Notes under the pieces: generated by a model
The model's database searches: none
Told to the model about the DNA's origin: nothing
Seen by the model: only the letters and a program-made list of their open reading frames with translations
Program-made: the position numbers and the translations under genes
In this document: one piece after another, positions 2,692 through 16,413 of the stretch
Layout of the letters: every line of letters begins with the position of its first letter
Numbering within the stretch: the first letter of the stretch is position 1
DNA from: Escherichia phage 64795_ec1
DNA: 39,235 bases
Sequence record: NC_031114.1
Direction: 5' to 3' (one strand)

Positions 2692-5343
2692 ATGAACACG
2701 ATTAACATCGCTAAGAACGACTTCTCTGACATCGAACTGGCTGCTATCCCGTTCAACACTCTGGCTGACCATTACGGTGAGCGTTTAGCTCGCGAACAGT
2801 TGGCCCTTGAGCATGAGTCTTACGAAATGGGTGAAGCACGCTTCCGCAAGATGTTTGAGCGTCAATTGAAAGCTGGTGAGGTTGCGGATAACGCTGCCGC
2901 TAAGCCTCTCATTACTACCCTGCTCCCTAAGATGATTGCACGCATCAACGACTGGTTTGAGGAGGTGAAAGCTAAGCGTGGCAAGCGCCCGACAGCCTTC
3001 CAGTTCCTGCAAGAAATCAAGCCGGAAGCTGTAGCGTACATCACCATTAAGACCACTCTGGCTTGTCTGACTAGCGCGGATAACACAACAGTTCAGGCTG
3101 TAGCAAGCGCAATCGGTCGAGCAATTGAGGATGAGGCGCGATTCGGTCGCATCCGTGACCTTGAGGCCAAGCACTTCAAGAAAAACGTTGAGGAGCAACT
3201 AAACAAGCGCGTAGGTCACGTCTACAAGAAAGCATTCATGCAGGTTGTCGAGGCTGACATGCTCTCTAAGGGTCTAATGGGCGGCGAGGCGTGGTCTTCA
3301 TGGCACAAGGAAGACTCCATTCACGTAGGTGTTCGCTGCATTGAGATGCTCATTGAGTCAACCGGAATGGTTAGCTTACACCGCCAAAACGCTGGCGTAG
3401 TGGGGCATGACTCTGAGACTATCGAACTCACGCCGGAATACGCTGAGGCTATCGCAACCCGTGCGGGTGCACTGGCTGGCATCTCTCCGATGTTCCAACC
3501 TTGCGTGGTTCCTCCTAAGCCTTGGACTGGTATTACTGGAGGTGGCTATTGGGCCAACGGTCGCCGTCCTCTGGCACTGGTGCGCACTCACAGCAAGAAA
3601 GCACTGATGCGCTACGAAGACGTTTACATGCCTGAGGTGTACAAGGCGATTAACATTGCGCAAAACACCGCATGGAAAATCAACAAGAAAGTCCTAGCGG
3701 TCGCCAACGTAATCACCAAGTGGAAGCACTGCCCTGTAGAGGACATCCCCGCGATTGAACGTGAAGAACTCCCGATGAAACCGGAAGACATCGACACGAA
3801 TCCTGAGGCGCTCACCGCTTGGAAACGTGCTGCCGCTGCTGTATACCGCAAAGACAAGGCACGCAAGTCTCGCCGTATCAGCCTTGAGTTCATGCTTGAG
3901 CAAGCCAACAAGTTCGCTAACCATAAGGCCATCTGGTTCCCTTACAACATGGACTGGCGCGGTCGTGTTTACGCTGTGTCAATGTTCAACCCGCAAGGTA
4001 ACGACATGACCAAGGGTCTGCTGACGCTGGCTAAAGGTAAACCAATCGGTAAAGAGGGTTACTACTGGTTGAAAATCCACGGTGCAAACTGCGCTGGTGT
4101 CGATAAGGTTCCGTTCCCTGAGCGCATCAAGTTCATTGAGGACAACCACGAGAACATCATGGCTTGCGCTAAGTCTCCACTGGAGAACACTTGGTGGGCT
4201 GAGCAAGATTCTCCGTTCTGCTTCTTAGCGTTCTGCTTTGAGTACGCTGGGGTTCAGCACCACGGCCTTAGCTACAACTGCTCGCTGCCTCTGGCGTTCG
4301 ATGGGTCTTGCTCTGGTATCCAGCACTTCTCCGCGATGCTTCTCGATGAGGTAGGCGGTATGGCTGTTAACCTACTGCCTAGTCCTACCGTTCAGGATAT
4401 CTACGGGATTGTCGCTAAGAAAGTCAACGTGATTCTACAAGAAGACGTAATCAACGGGACCGATAACGAAGTAGTCACCGTGACCGATGAGAACACTGGG
4501 GAAATCTCTGAGAAAGTCAAGCTGGGCACTAAGGCGCTGGCTGGTCAATGGCTGGCTTACGGTGTTACTCGCAGCGTGACTAAGCGTTCAGTCATGACGC
4601 TGGCTTACGGGTCCAAAGAGTTCGGCTTCCGCCAACAAGTGCTGGAAGATACCATTCAGCCAGCTATTGATTCCGGTAAGGGTCTTATGTTCACTCAACC
4701 GAATCAGGCTGCTGGGTACATGGCTAAACTGATTTGGGAAGCTGTGAGCGTCACGGTGGTGGCTGCGGTTGAAGCAATGAACTGGCTTAAGTCTGCTGCT
4801 AAGCTGCTTGCTGCTGAGGTCAAAGATAAGAAGACTGGGGAGATTCTTCGCAAGCGTTGCGCTGTACATTGGGTTACTCCTGATGGCTTCCCTGTGTGGC
4901 AGGAATACAAGAAGCCTATCCAGACTCGCTTGAACCTGATTTTCCTCGGTCAGTTCCGTCTACAGCCCACCATTAACACAAACAAGGATAGTGAGATTGA
5001 CGCTCACAAACAGGAGTCCGGTATAGCTCCTAACTTTGTGCATAGCCAAGATGGTAGCCACCTGCGTAAGACTGTAGTGTGGGCACACGAGAAGTACGGA
5101 ATCGAATCGTTTGCACTGATTCACGACTCCTTCGGGACCATTCCGGCTGACGCTGCCAACCTGTTCAAAGCTGTACGCGAAACTATGGTTGACACCTATG
5201 AGTCTTGTGATGTACTGGCTGACTTCTATGAGCAGTTCGCTGACCAGTTACACGAGTCTCAATTGGATAAAATGCCAGCACTTCCGGCTAAAGGTAACTT
5301 GAACCTACAGGACATCCTTAAGTCAGACTTCGCGTTCGCGTAA
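2692..5343 (+). CDS. 1: T7-type single-subunit DNA-dependent RNA polymerase (gene 1)
   Basis: 883 aa, MNTINIAKNDFSDIELAAIPFNTLADHYGERLAREQLALEHESYEMGEARFRKMF…, ends …LKSDFAFA. Confidence 0.99.
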   Translation: MNTINIAKNDFSDIELAAIPFNTLADHYGERLAREQLALEHESYEMGEARFRKMFERQLKAGEVADNAAAKPLITTLLPKMIARINDWFEEVKAKRGKRPTAFQFLQEIKPEAVAYITIKTTLACLTSADNTTVQAVASAIGRAIEDEARFGRIRDLEAKHFKKNVEEQLNKRVGHVYKKAFMQVVEADMLSKGLMGGEAWSSWHKEDSIHVGVRCIEMLIESTGMVSLHRQNAGVVGHDSETIELTPEYAEAIATRAGALAGISPMFQPCVVPPKPWTGITGGGYWANGRRPLALVRTHSKKALMRYEDVYMPEVYKAINIAQNTAWKINKKVLAVANVITKWKHCPVEDIPAIEREELPMKPEDIDTNPEALTAWKRAAAAVYRKDKARKSRRISLEFMLEQANKFANHKAIWFPYNMDWRGRVYAVSMFNPQGNDMTKGLLTLAKGKPIGKEGYYWLKIHGANCAGVDKVPFPERIKFIEDNHENIMACAKSPLENTWWAEQDSPFCFLAFCFEYAGVQHHGLSYNCSLPLAFDGSCSGIQHFSAMLLDEVGGMAVNLLPSPTVQDIYGIVAKKVNVILQEDVINGTDNEVVTVTDENTGEISEKVKLGTKALAGQWLAYGVTRSVTKRSVMTLAYGSKEFGFRQQVLEDTIQPAIDSGKGLMFTQPNQAAGYMAKLIWEAVSVTVVAAVEAMNWLKSAAKLLAAEVKDKKTGEILRKRCAVHWVTPDGFPVWQEYKKPIQTRLNLIFLGQFRLQPTINTNKDSEIDAHKQESGIAPNFVHSQDGSHLRKTVVWAHEKYGIESFALIHDSFGTIPADAANLFKAVRETMVDTYESCDVLADFYEQFADQLHESQLDKMPALPAKGNLNLQDILKSDFAFA

Positions 5344-5351
5344 CGTCAAAT

Positions 5352-5374
5352 TAATACGACTCACTATAGAGGGA
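5352..5374 (+). promoter_or_regulatory. T7-RNAP promoter phi1.1A
   Basis: TAATACGACTCACTATAGAGGGA, +1 at 5369. Confidence 0.85.
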
Positions 5375-5375
5375 C

Positions 5376-5416
5376 AAACTCAAGGTCATTCGCAAGAGTG
5401 GCCTTTATGATTGACC
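5376..5416 (+). promoter_or_regulatory. RNase III site R1.1
   Basis: AACTCAAGGTCATTCGCAAGAGTGGCCTTTATGATTGACC. Confidence 0.55.
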
Positions 5417-5426
5417 TTCTTCCGGT

Positions 5427-5449
5427 TAATACGACTCACTATAGGAGAA
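5427..5449 (+). promoter_or_regulatory. T7-RNAP promoter phi1.1B
   Basis: TAATACGACTCACTATAGGAGAA, +1 at 5444. Confidence 0.85.
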
Positions 5450-5520
5450 CCTTAAGGTTTAACTTTAAGACCATTAAGTGTTAATTAGAGATTAAATTAA
5501 AGAATACTAAGAGAGGACTT
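5450..5520 (+). other. AT-rich segment of the primary replication origin region (by position downstream of phi1.1A/B)
   Basis: AT-rich TTAACTTTAAGACCATTAAGTGTTAATTAGAGATTAAATTAAAGAATACTAAGAGAGG between phi1.1B and gene 1.1, as in T7. Confidence 0.5.
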
Positions 5521-5525
5521 TAAGT

Positions 5526-5654
5526 ATGCGTAACTTCGAAAAGATGACCAAACGTTCTAACCGTAACGCTCATGACTTCGAGGCAACCAAAGGTCGTAAG
5601 TTTAATAAACCATTACGCACCCGTGCGCATAAACGCTGCTGGGAGGGTAAATAA
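5526..5654 (+). CDS. 1.1: gene 1.1 small basic protein
   Basis: 42 aa MRNFEKMTKRSNRNAHDFEATKGRKFNKPLRTRAHKRCWEGK. Confidence 0.8.
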   Translation: MRNFEKMTKRSNRNAHDFEATKGRKFNKPLRTRAHKRCWEGK

Positions 5655-5655
5655 G

Positions 5656-5928
5656 ATGGGACGTCTGTATAGTGGCAATCTGGCGGCATACAAAGATGCT
5701 ATCGAGCGCCTCAGAGAAGACCATGCTGTAGATGTGGTCACTGAGACTTATCGACGTGAAGACTACGCACAGCGCCGATGGGTAGCTGGTGAGACTCTTC
5801 GAGTGGTCTTGCGGAATGGCGTAGAGTTGACATCCAAGAGGTTCGAACAGGGTGATGAGGATGTACGCTGCAACGCACAGACCGAGTGGTTACGCAAGGT
5901 GCATAGTGATTTGAAGCACTGGAAGTAA
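5656..5928 (+). CDS. 1.2: gene 1.2 protein (host dGTPase inhibitor family), divergent allele
   Basis: 90 aa starting MGRLYSGNLAA and ending …DLKHWK; stop TAA is the first triplet of phi1.3. Confidence 0.75.
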   Translation: MGRLYSGNLAAYKDAIERLREDHAVDVVTETYRREDYAQRRWVAGETLRVVLRNGVELTSKRFEQGDEDVRCNAQTEWLRKVHSDLKHWK

Positions 5929-5948
5929 TACGACTCAGTATAGGGAGA
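5926..5948 (+). promoter_or_regulatory. T7-RNAP promoter phi1.3
   Basis: TAATACGACTCAGTATAGGGAGA, +1 at 5943. Confidence 0.85.
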
Positions 5949-5952
5949 ACCA

Positions 5953-6369
5953 ATGAACGACATAGAACGATTCAACGCAAAGACTGAACCATGCGGAGAA
6001 TGTATTCGTTGGACTGGTCGAATCCAGCCTAACGGGTACGGTCAGTTACGATTAAACGGTAAAACACAGTATGCACACAGAGCAGCTTACACACTGTTCA
6101 ATGGAGAAATACCAGAAGGATACGTGGTTATGCACTCCTGCGATAACAGATGGTGTGTAAACCCAAGGCACCTAACTTTAGGAACACAATCTGATAACCT
6201 CATTGACATGACCAGAAAAGGTAGGCACAGTAAGACCGTAATACCAAACGATCACATAGAGGGAATCAGGAATGATACCCGATCTTCCTACGTAATAGCT
6301 AGGGAGTGGGGAGTGAATCCATCAACTATCCAAAAGATTAAATCTGGAAAGAATAGGAGATTTGTATGA
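5953..6369 (+). CDS. free-standing HNH homing-type endonuclease
   Basis: 138 aa; motif HSCDNRWCVNPRHLTLGTQSDNLIDM (H-x-C-D-N-x-x-C-x-N-P-x-H-L…N) and a helix-turn-helix-like C-terminus (VIAREWGVNPSTIQKIKSGK). Confidence 0.85.
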   Translation: MNDIERFNAKTEPCGECIRWTGRIQPNGYGQLRLNGKTQYAHRAAYTLFNGEIPEGYVVMHSCDNRWCVNPRHLTLGTQSDNLIDMTRKGRHSKTVIPNDHIEGIRNDTRSSYVIAREWGVNPSTIQKIKSGKNRRFV

Positions 6370-7436
6370 ACATTAAGACCAGCCCGTTTAAAGCCGTGTC
6401 CTTTGTTGAATCCGCCGTGAAGAAGGCGTTAGACAATGCTGGATACCTAATTGTCGATTGTAAATATGATGGTGTACGTGGGAACATCTGCGTAGACAAT
6501 ACCGCTAACAGTTGCTGGCTATCTCGTGTATCTAAAACGATTCCGGCACTGGAGCACCTAAACGGATTTGATGTTCGCTGGAAGAGTCTGCTTAACGATG
6601 ACCGTTGCTTCTACAAAGATGGCTTTATGCTTGATGGGGAACTCATGGTCAAAGGCGTAGACTTTAACACCGGGTCTGGCCTACTGCGTACCAAATGGCT
6701 CAACAAGAAGAACTTTGAGTTCGACGTTGGCGGTGTGCCACCACTCAAGGGGTCCAAGGTTGAGTTCGCATTGGACACCAAACGTCTGAGTGTCCGGTTG
6801 TACGCTATCCTCCCGCTGCACATCGTGGAGTCTGGAGAAGACTGCGATGTCATGACGTTGCTCATGCAGGAACACGTTAAGAACATGCTGCCTCTGCTAC
6901 AGGAATACTTCCCTGAAATAGAATGGCAAGCGGCTGAGTCTTACGAGGTTTACGACATGGTAGAACTACAGCAACTGTACGAGAAGAAGCGAGCGGAAGG
7001 GCATGAGGGTCTCATTGTGAAAGACCCTATGTGCATCTACAAGCGCGGTAAGAAGTCCGGCTGGTGGAAAATGAAACCTGAGAACGAAGCTGACGGTATC
7101 ATTCAGGGTCTTGTGTGGGGAACAGAAGGTTTAGCCAATGAAGGTAAAGTAATCGGATTTGAGGTGCTTCTTGAGAGTGGTCGTGTAGTTAACGCCACAA
7201 ACATCTCTCGCGCCTTAATGGATGAGATCACCGAGACAGTAAAAGAGGCCACCCTGAGTCAATGGGGATTCTTTAGCCCATATGGTATTGGCGACAACGA
7301 TGCCTGTACGATTAACCCTTACGATGGCTGGTCGTGTCAAATCAGCTACATGGAGGAAACACCTGATGGCTCTCTGCGTCACCCATCGTTCGTAATGTTC
7401 CGTGGCACCGAGGACAACCCTCAAGAGAAAATGTAA
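6366..7436 (+). CDS. 1.3: ATP-dependent DNA ligase (gene 1.3)
   Basis: 356 aa, MNIKTSPFKAVSFVESAVKKALDNAGYLIVDCKYDGVRGN… (KxDG adenylation motif). Confidence 0.97.
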   Translation: MNIKTSPFKAVSFVESAVKKALDNAGYLIVDCKYDGVRGNICVDNTANSCWLSRVSKTIPALEHLNGFDVRWKSLLNDDRCFYKDGFMLDGELMVKGVDFNTGSGLLRTKWLNKKNFEFDVGGVPPLKGSKVEFALDTKRLSVRLYAILPLHIVESGEDCDVMTLLMQEHVKNMLPLLQEYFPEIEWQAAESYEVYDMVELQQLYEKKRAEGHEGLIVKDPMCIYKRGKKSGWWKMKPENEADGIIQGLVWGTEGLANEGKVIGFEVLLESGRVVNATNISRALMDEITETVKEATLSQWGFFSPYGIGDNDACTINPYDGWSCQISYMEETPDGSLRHPSFVMFRGTEDNPQEKM

Positions 7437-7443
7437 TCACACT

Positions 7444-7474
7444 GGCTCACCTTCTGGTGGGCCTTTCTGCATTT
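7444..7474 (+). terminator. host-RNAP early terminator TE
   Basis: GGCTCACC-TTCT-GGTGGGCC stem followed by TTTCTGCATTT, directly after the ligase gene. Confidence 0.6.
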
Positions 7475-7489
7475 ATAAGGAGACACTTT

Positions 7490-7645
7490 ATGTTTAAGAA
7501 GGTTGGTAAGTTCCTTGCGGCTTGGGCCGTCATCCTCATACTCACATATCTTCTGGTTGTTCATCCTCCGGTAGCGTTTGTGTTTATCGGCGGGTGCTTA
7601 CTCATCTCAGCGTGTATATGCGTGTGGAGTATAGTTAACTGTTAA
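7490..7645 (+). CDS. 1.4: gene 1.4 small hydrophobic protein
   Basis: 51 aa MFKKVGKFLAAWAVILILTYLLVVHPPVAFVFIGGCLLISACICVWSIVNC; SD AGGAG upstream. Confidence 0.8.
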   Translation: MFKKVGKFLAAWAVILILTYLLVVHPPVAFVFIGGCLLISACICVWSIVNC

Positions 7646-7665
7646 TACGACTCACTAAAGGAGGT
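7643..7665 (+). promoter_or_regulatory. T7-RNAP promoter phi1.5
   Basis: TAATACGACTCACTAAAGGAGGT, +1 at 7660. Confidence 0.8.
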
Positions 7666-7672
7666 ACACATC

Positions 7673-7762
7673 ATGATGTACTTAATGCCATTACTCATCG
7701 TAATCATAGGATGCCTTGCGCTCTGCTGTGGCGATGATGATATGCCAGATGGTCACGCTTAA
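7673..7762 (+). CDS. 1.5: gene 1.5 small protein
   Basis: 29 aa MMYLMPLLIVIIGCLALCCGDDDMPDGHA, hand-translated. Confidence 0.7.
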   Translation: MMYLMPLLIVIIGCLALCCGDDDMPDGHA

Positions 7763-7782
7763 TACGACTCACTAAAGGAGAC
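7760..7782 (+). promoter_or_regulatory. T7-RNAP promoter phi1.6
   Basis: TAATACGACTCACTAAAGGAGAC, +1 at 7777. Confidence 0.8.
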
Positions 7783-7787
7783 ACTAT

Positions 7788-8048
7788 ATGTTTCGACTTC
7801 ATTACAACAAAAGTCTTGAGAATTTCACGGTTCGCCGTGCTGACCGTTCAATCGTATGTGCGAGCGAGCGCCGAGCTAAGTTACCTCTTATTGGTAACAC
7901 AGTTCCTCTGGCACCGAGCGTACACATCATTATCACCCGTGGTGACTTTGAGAAAGCAATAGACAAGAAACGTCCGGTTCTTAGTGTGGCAGTGACCCGC
8001 TTCCCGTTCGTCCGTCTGTTACTCAAACGAATCAAGGAGGTGTTCTGA
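7788..8048 (+). CDS. 1.6: gene 1.6 protein
   Basis: 86 aa ORF at the T7 gene 1.6 position. Confidence 0.8.
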
Positions 8049-10721: not shown

Positions 10722-12913
<2,192 letters not shown>

Positions 12914-13928: not shown

Positions 13929-16043
13929 ATGATCGTTTCTGACATCGAAGCTAACGCCCTCTTAGAGAGCGTCACTAAGTTCCACTGCGGGGTTATCTAC
14001 GACTACTCCACCGCTGAGTACGTAAGCTACCGTCCGGGTGACTTCGGTGCGTATCTGGATGCGCTGGAAGCCGAGGTTGCACGAGGCGGTCTTATTGTGT
14101 TCCACAACGGTCACAAGTATGACGTTCCTGCATTGACCAAACTGGCAAAGCTACAATTGAACCGAGAGTTCCATCTTCCCCGTGAGAACTGCATCGACAC
14201 CCTTGTGTTGTCACGTTTGATTCACTCCAACCTAAAAGACACCGATATGGGTCTTCTGCGTTCCGGTAAGTTGCCGGGGAAACGCTTTGGGTCTCACGCT
14301 TTGGAGGCTTGGGGCTATCGCTTAGGAGAAATGAAAGGTGAATACAAGGATGACTTTAAGCGTATGCTTGAAGAGCAGGGTGAAGAATACGTTGACGGAA
14401 TGGAATGGTGGAACTTCAACGAAGAGATGATGGACTATAACGTTCAGGACGTTGTGGTCACTAAAGCTCTCCTTGAGAAGCTACTCTCTGACAAACATTA
14501 CTTCCCTCCTGAGATTGACTTTACGGACGTAGGATACACTACGTTCTGGTCAGAATCCCTTGAGGCCGTTGACGTTGAACATCGTGCTGCATGGCTGCTC
14601 GCTAAGCAAGAGCGCAATGGGTTCCCGTTTGACACGAAAGCAATCGAAGAGTTGTACGTAGAGTTGGCTGCTCGCCGCTCTGAGTTGCTCCGTAAGCTGA
14701 CCGAAACGTTCGGCTCATGGTATCAACCTAAAGGTGGCACCGAAATGTTCTGCCATCCGCGAACAGGTAAGCCACTACCTAAATACCCTCGCATTAAGAT
14801 ACCTAAAGTTGGTGGTATCTTTAAGAAGCCTAAGAACAAGGCACAGCGAGAGGGCCGTGAGCCTTGCGAACTGGATACCCGCGAGTACGTTGCAGGTGCT
14901 CCTTACACCCCAGTTGAGCACGTAGTGTTTAACCCTTCGTCCCGTGACCACATTCAGAAGAAACTCCAAGAGGCTGGATGGGTCCCCACGAAGTACACCG
15001 ATAAGGGTGCTCCTGTGGTGGACGATGAGGTACTCGAAGGAGTGCGTGTAGATGACCCTGAGAAGCAAGCTGCAATCGACCTCATTAAAGAGTACCTGAT
15101 GATTCAGAAGAGAATCGGACAGTCTGCTGAGGGAGACAAGGCGTGGCTTCGTTACGTTGCTGAGGACGGTAAGATTCATGGTTCTGTTAATCCTAATGGA
15201 GCAGTTACGGGTCGTGCGACCCATGCGTTCCCCAACCTTGCGCAAATTCCGGGTGTACGTTCTCCTTATGGAGAGCAGTGTCGCGCTGCTTTTGGCGCTG
15301 AGCACCATTTGGATGGGATAACTGGTAAGCCTTGGGTTCAGGCAGGTATCGACGCAAGCGGCCTTGAGTTGCGCTGCTTGGCCCACTTTATGGCTCGCTT
15401 TGATAACGGTGAGTACGCTCACGAGATTCTTAATGGGGACATCCACACTAAGAACCAGATGGCTGCCGAATTGCCTACCCGCGATAACGCTAAGACGTTC
15501 ATCTATGGGTTCCTTTATGGTGCTGGTGATGAGAAGATTGGGCAGATTGTTGGTGCTGGTAAAGAGCGCGGTAAGGAACTAAAGAAGAAATTCCTTGAGA
15601 ACACCCCTGCGATTGCAGCACTACGCGAGTCTATCCAACAGACACTTGTCGAGTCCTCTCAGTGGGTAGCTGGTGAGCAGCAAGTCAAGTGGAAACGCCG
15701 CTGGATTAAAGGTCTGGATGGTCGTAAGGTACACGTTCGTAGTCCTCACGCTGCCTTGAATACCCTACTGCAATCTGCTGGCGCTCTCATCTGCAAACTG
15801 TGGATTATCAAGACCGAAGAGATGCTCGTAGAGAAAGGCTTGAAGCACGGTTGGGATGGGGACTTTGCGTACATGGCGTGGGTACACGATGAAATCCAAG
15901 TAGGTTGCCGTACCGAAGAGATTGCTCAGGTTGTCATTGAGACCGCACAGGAAGCAATGCGCTGGGTTGGAGACCACTGGAACTTCCGGTGTCTTCTGGA
16001 TACCGAAGGTAAGATGGGTCCTAATTGGGCGATTTGCCATTAA
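13929..16043 (+). CDS. 5: DNA polymerase, family A with 3'-5' exonuclease (gene 5)
   Basis: 704 aa [39 protein letters not shown]…, ends …GPNWAICH. Confidence 0.99.
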
Positions 16044-16056
16044 AGGAGGTATACAA

Positions 16057-16413
16057 GTGGATTCGAAACACGTCACTGGTGCTGCGTCGGAACTACTTGT
16101 TGCCTACAAGTTTACCAAGGCTGGGTACACTGTGTATTACCCTATGCTTACTCAAAGTAAAGAGGACTTAGTTGTATGTAAGGATGGTAAATTTAGTAAG
16201 GTGCAGGTTAAGACTGCGACATCGTTAACTGTTGGTGGCAGTACGGCACATCAAGTCAGACTAGGCGGTTGTGGTAGAGCGTCCTACAAGGATGGCGACT
16301 TTGACCTACTGGCTGCTGTGGTGGAAGATGAAGTCCTCCTGTACACATGGGAGGAAGTTAAAGGCAAGACCTCTATGTGCGTAGGTAAGCGCAACAAAGG
16401 CGTTAAACTATAG
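16057..16413 (+). CDS. 5.3: gene 5.3 protein
   Basis: 118 aa from GTG 16057 after SD AAGGAGG; VDSKHVTGAASELLVAYKFTKAGYTVYYPMLTQSKEDLVVCKDGKF…. Confidence 0.75.
   Translation: MDSKHVTGAASELLVAYKFTKAGYTVYYPMLTQSKEDLVVCKDGKFSKVQVKTATSLTVGGSTAHQVRLGGCGRASYKDGDFDLLAAVVEDEVLLYTWEEVKGKTSMCVGKRNKGVKL

Follow-up and report, generated by a model that had tools for sequence, protein, structure and literature searches.

A predicted free-standing HNH homing endonuclease gene at the DNA ligase start of a T7-group phage

In a T7-group phage, the DNA ligase gene is directly preceded by a 138-codon gene that, judging from its sequence and its relatives, is likely to be a free-standing, I-HmuI-like homing endonuclease gene of the HNH (His-Me finger) type lodged at this site. 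The gene occupies the place of a conserved RNase III processing site, appears to share its translation signals with its neighbours, and recurs at the same position in a small minority of related phages. The DNA analysed here, which we call the window, is 39,235 bp long and constitutes an essentially complete T7-group (Teseptimavirus) genome, the first 25 kb of which are ~92% identical to Cedecea phage Yanou, Escherichia phage Bas104, Shigella phage ESh1 and T7.

The HNH gene replaces the R1.3 leader

The features of the locus, all on the + strand, are as follows.

5656–5928 (+): gene 1.2, the left neighbour, annotated as dGTPase inhibitor in its Yanou, AV103 and Bas104 counterparts
5926–5948 (+): phi1.3, a T7-type promoter (TAATACGACTCAGTATAGGGAGA) with +1 at 5943 and one mismatch to the T7 consensus
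5953–6369 (+): free-standing HNH endonuclease gene, 138 aa, ATG start, identified as an open reading frame (ORF) with a Pfam HNH_3 match
6355–6360 (+): AGGAGA, Shine–Dalgarno (SD) sequence for ligase, inside HNH codons Arg135–Arg136, 5 nt 5′ of the ligase ATG
6366–7436 (+): gene 1.3, ATP-dependent DNA ligase, the right neighbour, annotated as DNA ligase in all relatives
6366–6480 (+): first ~115 nt of ligase, including the motif I K-Y-D-G codons; candidate co-conversion tract and/or target/immunity region
7441–7474 (+): early terminator TE, near-identical to the T7 sequence around the annotated TE

A sequence-only reading of the window had placed the ORF between gene 1.2 and ligase, with its ATG 4 nt past promoter position +6 and its TGA overlapping the ligase ATG, and this arrangement held in every detail: +6 is 5948, ACCA (5949–5952) leads to the ATG at 5953, and the TGA (6367–6369) and the ligase ATG (6366–6368) share the sequence ATGA. 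Gene 1.2, which has 92–93% nucleotide identity to its Yanou and AV103 counterparts, ends in a TAA (5926–5928) that supplies the first three bases of phi1.3. From −17 to +4 this promoter is identical to phi1.3 of T7, AV103 and Yersinia phage R, and it shares the G at −5 with T7's own phi1.3. TE was missed by a simple terminator scan and identified by direct comparison with T7; its conservation just 3′ of ligase places the HNH gene inside the early transcription unit. Scanning for sigma-70 promoters and terminators revealed nothing relevant in the HNH region. The gene does not reside in an intron: it begins after the gene 1.2 stop, ends at the ligase start and interrupts no gene.

T7 has no ORF at this position, as the sequence-only reading had stated; its phi1.3 +1 is at T7 position 6409 and its ligase gene begins 66 nt on, at 6475. 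In HNH-less AV103, Yersinia phage R and T7, the promoter reads GGGAC, and AATGCTTAAGGTCGCTC...GAGTGGCCTTAGTCATTTAACC separates it from the ligase SD and ATG; R1.3 is annotated between phi1.3 and ligase in Yersinia phage R and T3. Alignment of the gene 1.2–ligase junction set the boundaries of the insertion at promoter +5 on the left, where the window diverges from HNH-less sequence, and at the ligase start on the right, where recognisable homology returns. Position +5 is C in all five HNH-less Teseptimavirus genomes compared and another base in all six that carry the gene. The HNH gene thereby replaces the ~43-nt R1.3 RNase III hairpin that its HNH-less relatives have between phi1.3 and the ligase SD. 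For AV103 and Yersinia phage R, the computed folding energy of this hairpin is −23.5 to −24.6 kcal/mol (z about −3); folding of the window leader revealed no significant structure (z −0.86 and −0.24) and no surviving R1.3-type hairpin. The suspicion that the RNase III site had been displaced was therefore justified, the hairpin being lost from the leader with no R1.3 copy nearby. A search for a relocated R1.3 stem recovered only other RNase III-like sites (for example ~1196–1225 and ~5379–5407), none of them between gene 1.2 and ligase, and an Rfam search of 5000–8000 at a permissive E-value found no RNA family, no intron and no relocated known structure. This replacement recurs in a second genus, in which T3 keeps R1.3 and an SD of its own behind phi1.3, and ECA2 and Poynor run from promoter +6 straight into the HNH ATG. 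Given the loss of R1.3, the 1.1–1.2–HNH–1.3 message is probably uncleaved between genes 1.2 and 1.3.

Translation signals are shared with promoter and ligase

Transcripts from phi1.3 have a leader of 10 nt (+1 at 5943, ATG at 5953), and GGGAGA (5943–5948) is the sole SD-like sequence available to the HNH gene, in agreement with the earlier proposal that the promoter purines double as its SD. A promoter start that doubles as an SD is a layout native to T7-group genes, as at the window promoters at 7643 and 7760. In these phi1.5-like (7643–7677) and phi1.6-like (7760–7790) promoters (TAATACGACTCACTAAAGGAGGT and ...AAAGGAGAC), the transcribed start doubles as the SD of the next gene.

At the other end, the last HNH codons, Asn-Arg-Arg-Phe (AAT AGG AGA TTT), contain AGGAGA at 6355–6360. 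The N-R-R-F/AGGAGA layout is also found in Yanou, Poynor, ECA2, phiA020 and the metagenomic P0017 contig, and the Bas104 group has GAGGAAA as an equivalent purine-rich ligase SD, so that every HNH-carrying lineage has such a sequence. The native ligase SD of T3 differs from the AGGAGA of the HNH cassettes. As read from these comparisons, the cassette brings, or preserves, the predicted ribosome-binding site of ligase. Ligase translation had been proposed to be coupled to that of the endonuclease. The ATGA overlap on which this rested is real, but a strong SD with a 5-nt spacer lies within the last HNH codons, and for this reason ligase translation need not depend on termination–reinitiation. 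Ligase is probably able to initiate independently; strict coupling is not required, and the overlap would allow termination–reinitiation.

The product has a predicted I-HmuI-like architecture

The sequence-only reading had described an intact HNH signature and a helix-turn-helix (HTH)-like tail, and both features were recovered. The signature, HSCDNRWCVNPRHLTLGTQSDNLIDM, spans residues 61–86 of the 138-aa protein. Profile searches with the product matched Pfam HNH_3 (PF13392; E = 8.9e-16, 57.7 bits against a gathering cut-off of 24.8, residues 40–82) and PHROG 59 (HNH endonuclease; E = 2.5e-35), and zf-His_Me_endon scored 25.0, slightly below its cut-off of 27. Together with a low dN/dS (see below), the HNH_3 and PHROG 59 matches argue that the ORF is not a chance one. 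The protein is laid out as follows.

Residues ~10–40: N-terminal beta-sheet region
Residues ~57–88 (window ~6121–6216, +): HNH beta-beta-alpha-metal core
Residues ~89–98: flexible linker
Residues 99–130 (window ~6247–6342, +): C-terminal three-helix HTH

In an alignment of 62 homologs, C17, H42, H61, C63, C68, H73 and N82 were invariant and D64, N65, N70 and P71 were at least 90% conserved; the catalytic core is thus intact, with both His61 and Asn82 retained throughout. An AlphaFold2 model built from this alignment (mean pLDDT 91) contained core strands at 57–61 and 74–78 and a core helix at 79–88 (pLDDT ~95), as well as N-terminal beta-strands, a lower-confidence linker and three C-terminal helices; the predicted HTH (99–130) aligned with that of I-HmuI. 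Searching PDB sequences with the single protein sequence yielded no match. The family profile reached I-HmuI (E = 0.0047) over nearly the whole length, with profile positions 31–152 aligned to residues 34–163 of chain 1u3e_M. In this alignment I-HmuI H75 corresponds to window H61 and N96 to N82, and the C-terminal HTHs are also paired. Foldseek comparison of the predicted structure with I-HmuI gave 162 aligned columns, and the predicted core also matches I-PpoI. The modelled protein therefore has the His-Me finger nuclease fold, a beta-hairpin plus helix with a general-base His and a metal-binding Asn, and the predicted order of domains is that of I-HmuI: N-terminal beta-sheet, HNH core and C-terminal HTH.

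Orthologs are sporadic and tied to the ligase start

Megablast with the 1.5-kb junction matched 230 phage records, only 2 of which were covered to at least 80%. With the HNH protein as a tblastn query, 1,849 records contained some homolog and 22 contained one at 60% identity or more; in all 22, the match abuts or overlaps the ligase gene. The orthologs belong to at least three genera (Teseptimavirus, Teetrevirus and Minipunavirus) and fall into the following three groups by identity to the window protein.

94–95%: Yanou and PDP351P2 (Teseptimavirus)
70–75%: ECA2, E-2, E-4 and several Klebsiella and Shigella phages (72–75%; ECA2 is a Teetrevirus), and phiA020 (70%; Minipunavirus)
61%: Bas104, ESh1, ESh3 and WW2 (ESh1 is a Teseptimavirus)

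In GenBank, orthologs at the same position with 70–95% amino acid identity include Yanou ORF12, PDP351P2, the Klebsiella phages Poynor, Patroon and Bumbleweed, ECA2 and Morganella phage phiA020. Several already bear the annotation 'HNH endonuclease' or 'endonuclease', and the window allele is ~5% different from the nearest of them. Literature searches found no description or functional study of the ligase-linked HNH gene. In a 40.8-kb metagenomic contig that lacks gene 1.2, a 57% ortholog is flanked by a gene 1.1 homolog and ligase. Orthologs at or above this identity were found only beside ligase; homologs at 45–47% identity occupy unrelated genomic contexts, and a scan of IMG/VR with the HNH protein returned one distant locus (36% identity) only. 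Across the orthologs the right junction with ligase is constant and the left context varies, a pattern indicative of a specific link to the start of ligase. Presence at this one fixed site is sporadic among collinear relatives, most of which carry R1.3 there. The gene is accordingly not a conserved core gene of all close relatives: its orthologs form a small minority, and their history appears uncoupled from that of the backbone.

Divergence, composition and selection

Bas104 and ESh1 have backbones ~92% identical to the window. Between the window and Bas104, nucleotide identity is 92.7% in the RNA polymerase gene, 96% in gene 1.1, 83% in gene 1.2 and 87.7% in ligase, versus 64.8% in the HNH gene. 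The comparison with Yanou gave a dS of 0.19 for HNH and 0.44 for ligase. Against Poynor and ECA2, the HNH gene (74% nucleotide identity, dN 0.21) resembles ligase (75%, dN 0.17) and the RNA polymerase gene (77%). The GC content of the HNH gene, 43.0%, is at the 3.7th percentile of 414-nt windows, and its GC3 is 40.6% versus 56–59% in ligase and RNA polymerase. All ten orthologs examined were intact, and dN/dS was 0.11–0.15, near the 0.09–0.12 of ligase. These substitution ratios show that the HNH protein has been kept functional by purifying selection. As selection appears to be as strong as that on ligase, a domesticated function would be equally compatible with them.

A block of ligase travels with the gene

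Sliding-window identity along the ligase region revealed a sharp block at ~6360–6480, corresponding to ligase nt 1 to ~115 and including motif I (K-Y-D-G). HNH-less AV103, Emilie, JeanTinguely, T7 and UFV01 are 70–81% identical to the window within the block and 90–98% identical just downstream. HNH-carrying Yanou and PDP351P2 are 92–96% identical within it and drop to 74–82% at 6520–6640. By analogy with T4 MobE, the block resembles a tract of co-conversion or a target/immunity region. It is not a clean immunity marker, because Yersinia phage R has the window-type block despite lacking the HNH gene, and the Bas104-class HNH gene adjoins a T7-type block. Other mosaic patches lie within 1 kb (6680–6760, 7200–7330 and 7440–7600, where identity to particular relatives falls to 45–70%), and a mosaic patch might border the HNH gene by chance.

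A simple polymorphism-based immunity signature was considered and rejected: no flank position beyond promoter +5 and the leader separates the six HNH-carrying from the five HNH-less Teseptimavirus genomes, and among flank positions +5 alone does so. In Bas104, ESh1 and WW2 the ligase N terminus is remodelled, with MIINFKTSPYKA in place of M(M)NIKTNPFKA, which suggests that the Bas104-class allele may have brought its own first ~35 nt of ligase. One of the mosaic patches contains an ORF (7457–7645; 62 aa, hydrophobic) at the gene 1.4 position. Gene 1.2 (window 5656–5925) also exists as two deeply divergent alleles (~41–62% nucleotide identity in 80-nt windows), one in the window, AV103, Emilie and Yanou and the other in T7, Yersinia phage R, ESh1 and UFV01, on backbones otherwise 90–99% identical; phage EG1 has two tandem copies of gene 1.2 (L023, 1259–1797).

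Mobile, domesticated, ancestral or inactive

The discordant divergence, the low GC3 and the co-inherited ~115 nt of the ligase 5′ end together point to a mobile or recently mobile element, as far as sequence comparison can tell, rather than to a core or domesticated gene. The sequence-only reading had called the gene domesticated, a description that sits poorly with its patchy distribution, with three divergent alleles at one site and with flank-discordant divergence, low GC3 and a co-inherited flank. On a domestication account, the nuclease would have arrived by homing and then been kept for a benefit to the phage, such as damage to co-infecting relatives (interference competition), a stimulus to recombination or replication, or tuning of ligase expression, and would no longer spread by gene conversion. 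The dN/dS of 0.11–0.15, as low as that of ligase, would fit such a history, as would the neat integration of the gene (promoter-derived SD, embedded ligase SD and 4-nt overlap) and its conservation across lineages. A precedent comes from a phage intron endonuclease that is reported to mediate competition between co-infecting viruses (PMC11620839). However, the gene is present in a small minority of relatives, divergent alleles have been exchanged on similar backbones, and the foreign GC3 and co-inherited flank block are expected of an element that is still moving. Domestication without homing thus seems unlikely to us, and a competitive benefit and homing are in any case not mutually exclusive.

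Ancestry offers another route to sporadic presence, in which HNH was a T7-group core gene that most lineages have lost. The similar divergence of HNH, ligase and RNA polymerase between the window and Poynor/ECA2 would fit vertical co-divergence of two clades. Against this, HNH-less members of both Teseptimavirus and Teetrevirus share at this locus a leader with homologous promoter, R1.3 hairpin and SD, and loss would have had to recreate R1.3 repeatedly. The Bas104-class alleles are, moreover, far more diverged than their backbone, GC3 is atypical, and a fixed right junction is combined with a variable left context; we consider ancestral presence very improbable. Still harder to credit is a catalytically dead DNA-binding protein that keeps only the fold, for example as a repressor near phi1.3 or on ligase. 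The predicted C-terminal HTH would serve such a role, and some homing endonucleases, I-TevI among them, double as autorepressors (PMC2790892), but all 62 aligned homologs retain His61 and Asn82 (I-HmuI H75 and N96) as well as the Cys/His ligands, and nothing suggests a loss of activity.

Comparison with I-HmuI and T4 MobE

The homing endonuclease that we favour has two informative relatives in function. I-HmuI of Bacillus phage SPO1 (PDB 1U3E) resembles the window protein in its N-terminal beta-sheet, HNH core, HTH and catalytic His and Asn, and enzymes of this type nick one strand (PMC3428280). The window gene differs from that class in being free-standing, with no intron found around it. T4 MobE is encoded by a free-standing HNH gene between nrdA and nrdB and nicks the 5′ end of the downstream gene; its target lies there, close to codons that are critical for function, and neighbouring sequence undergoes co-conversion (PMC2790892). 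The window gene and that for MobE are alike in being free-standing HNH genes between two conserved genes and in depending on the transcription signals of the host phage, and the ligase 5′ block that travels with the window gene includes motif I. MobE, in contrast, is promoterless and has an internal terminator, whereas the window gene lies directly behind a phage promoter. The likeness to T4 Mob proteins is one of functional analogy only.

Within T7 itself, gp7.7 and gp3.8 belong to the same Pfam family (HNH_3) but are encoded at different loci. T7 gp7.7 is ~41% identical to the window protein over 89% of the protein, and represents in T7 and phiA1122 a paralog of the ligase-linked HNH. A tblastn search of the whole window with the HNH protein recovered only itself and a gene 3.8-like match, and no gp7.7 homolog.

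A proposed homing cycle

In the homing cycle that we propose, the HNH gene would be transcribed early: its position 5′ of TE would allow transcription from the host-polymerase promoters, and phi1.1A, phi1.1B and phi1.3 would contribute as well. During mixed infection, the monomeric enzyme would recognise and cut the HNH-less allele at an extended asymmetric site. This site would be the junction of R1.3 leader and ligase start, or else the opening ~120 nt of ligase, around motif I. A one-strand nick as made by I-HmuI and T4 MobE seems most likely and a double-strand cut possible; we infer both the strand specificity and the extended asymmetric target from these precedents and from the presence of a single active site. 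Recombinational repair from the HNH-carrying genome would then transfer the cassette, together with neighbouring ligase sequence, to the recipient. Carriers themselves would be immune because their leader is gone and/or their ligase 5′ block is different. Marker exclusion by such an enzyme is plausible by analogy.

A more ambitious reading, which we offer tentatively and consider possible rather than probable, operates at two levels. At the first, the orthologs would form an actively homing clade of nickases specialised on a single target across several Studiervirinae genera, the phi1.3–R1.3–ligase start region, where recognition would fall on DNA encoding the conserved RNase III processing site or on the ligase motif I codons. 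The cassette would be almost cost-free, borrowing promoter purines as its own SD and supplying a replacement ligase SD in its last codons. The second level is more speculative: the invariant 4-nt or 1-nt overlap between HNH and ligase may be functional, tying the nickase to ligase synthesis so that a carrier could seal the nicks in its own DNA, to the disadvantage of competitors with little ligase or with different timing.

Significance

The coming and going of HNH genes is familiar among T7-like phages (for example PMC4925675), so an HNH insertion as such will not surprise specialists. The window gene is, as predicted from its sequence, an ordinary free-standing homing endonuclease gene, an element of a well-known kind. 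Of modest interest are that it occupies one site, the ligase start, in several genera, that it replaces an RNase III site precisely, and that it carries within it an SD for the gene downstream. The element also marks a recombination boundary in the T7-group early region. It provides a natural case in which a selfish gene has deleted a conserved RNase III site, R1.3, without evident harm to the phage, which bears on the dispensability of R1.3 processing and on how selfish genes integrate into compact phage transcription units. If active, the enzyme would be a new long-site nickase or cutter directed against T7 and T3 ligase-region DNA, and it could bias inheritance in mixed infections, with relevance to phage cocktails and engineered T7 derivatives.

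Other endonuclease genes

A role like that of HK97-type packaging HNH proteins was rejected for the ligase-linked gene, which is early and beside ligase, not beside terminase; no such HNH factor is known in T7-group packaging. The window contains a second HNH_3 gene at the T7 gene 3.8 position (10851–11207, +; Pfam E = 1.4e-11), which bears only weak similarity to its ligase-linked counterpart (tblastn 26% identity, E = 0.019). Just 3′ of the DNA polymerase gene, an ORF at 15922–16413 (+) matches the PD-(D/E)XK endonuclease family PF11645 (E = 3.4e-10); relatives have homing endonucleases at this position, which is that of gene 5.3. Around ligase, the early region looks like a hotspot for predicted endonuclease genes. 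In Escherichia phage JeanTinguely (L019, 3058–3528) a putative homing endonuclease gene overlaps the ligase 3′ end, and in Serratia phage UFV01 (L022, 1028–1504) an HNH homing endonuclease gene lies between the RNA polymerase gene and gene 1.1.
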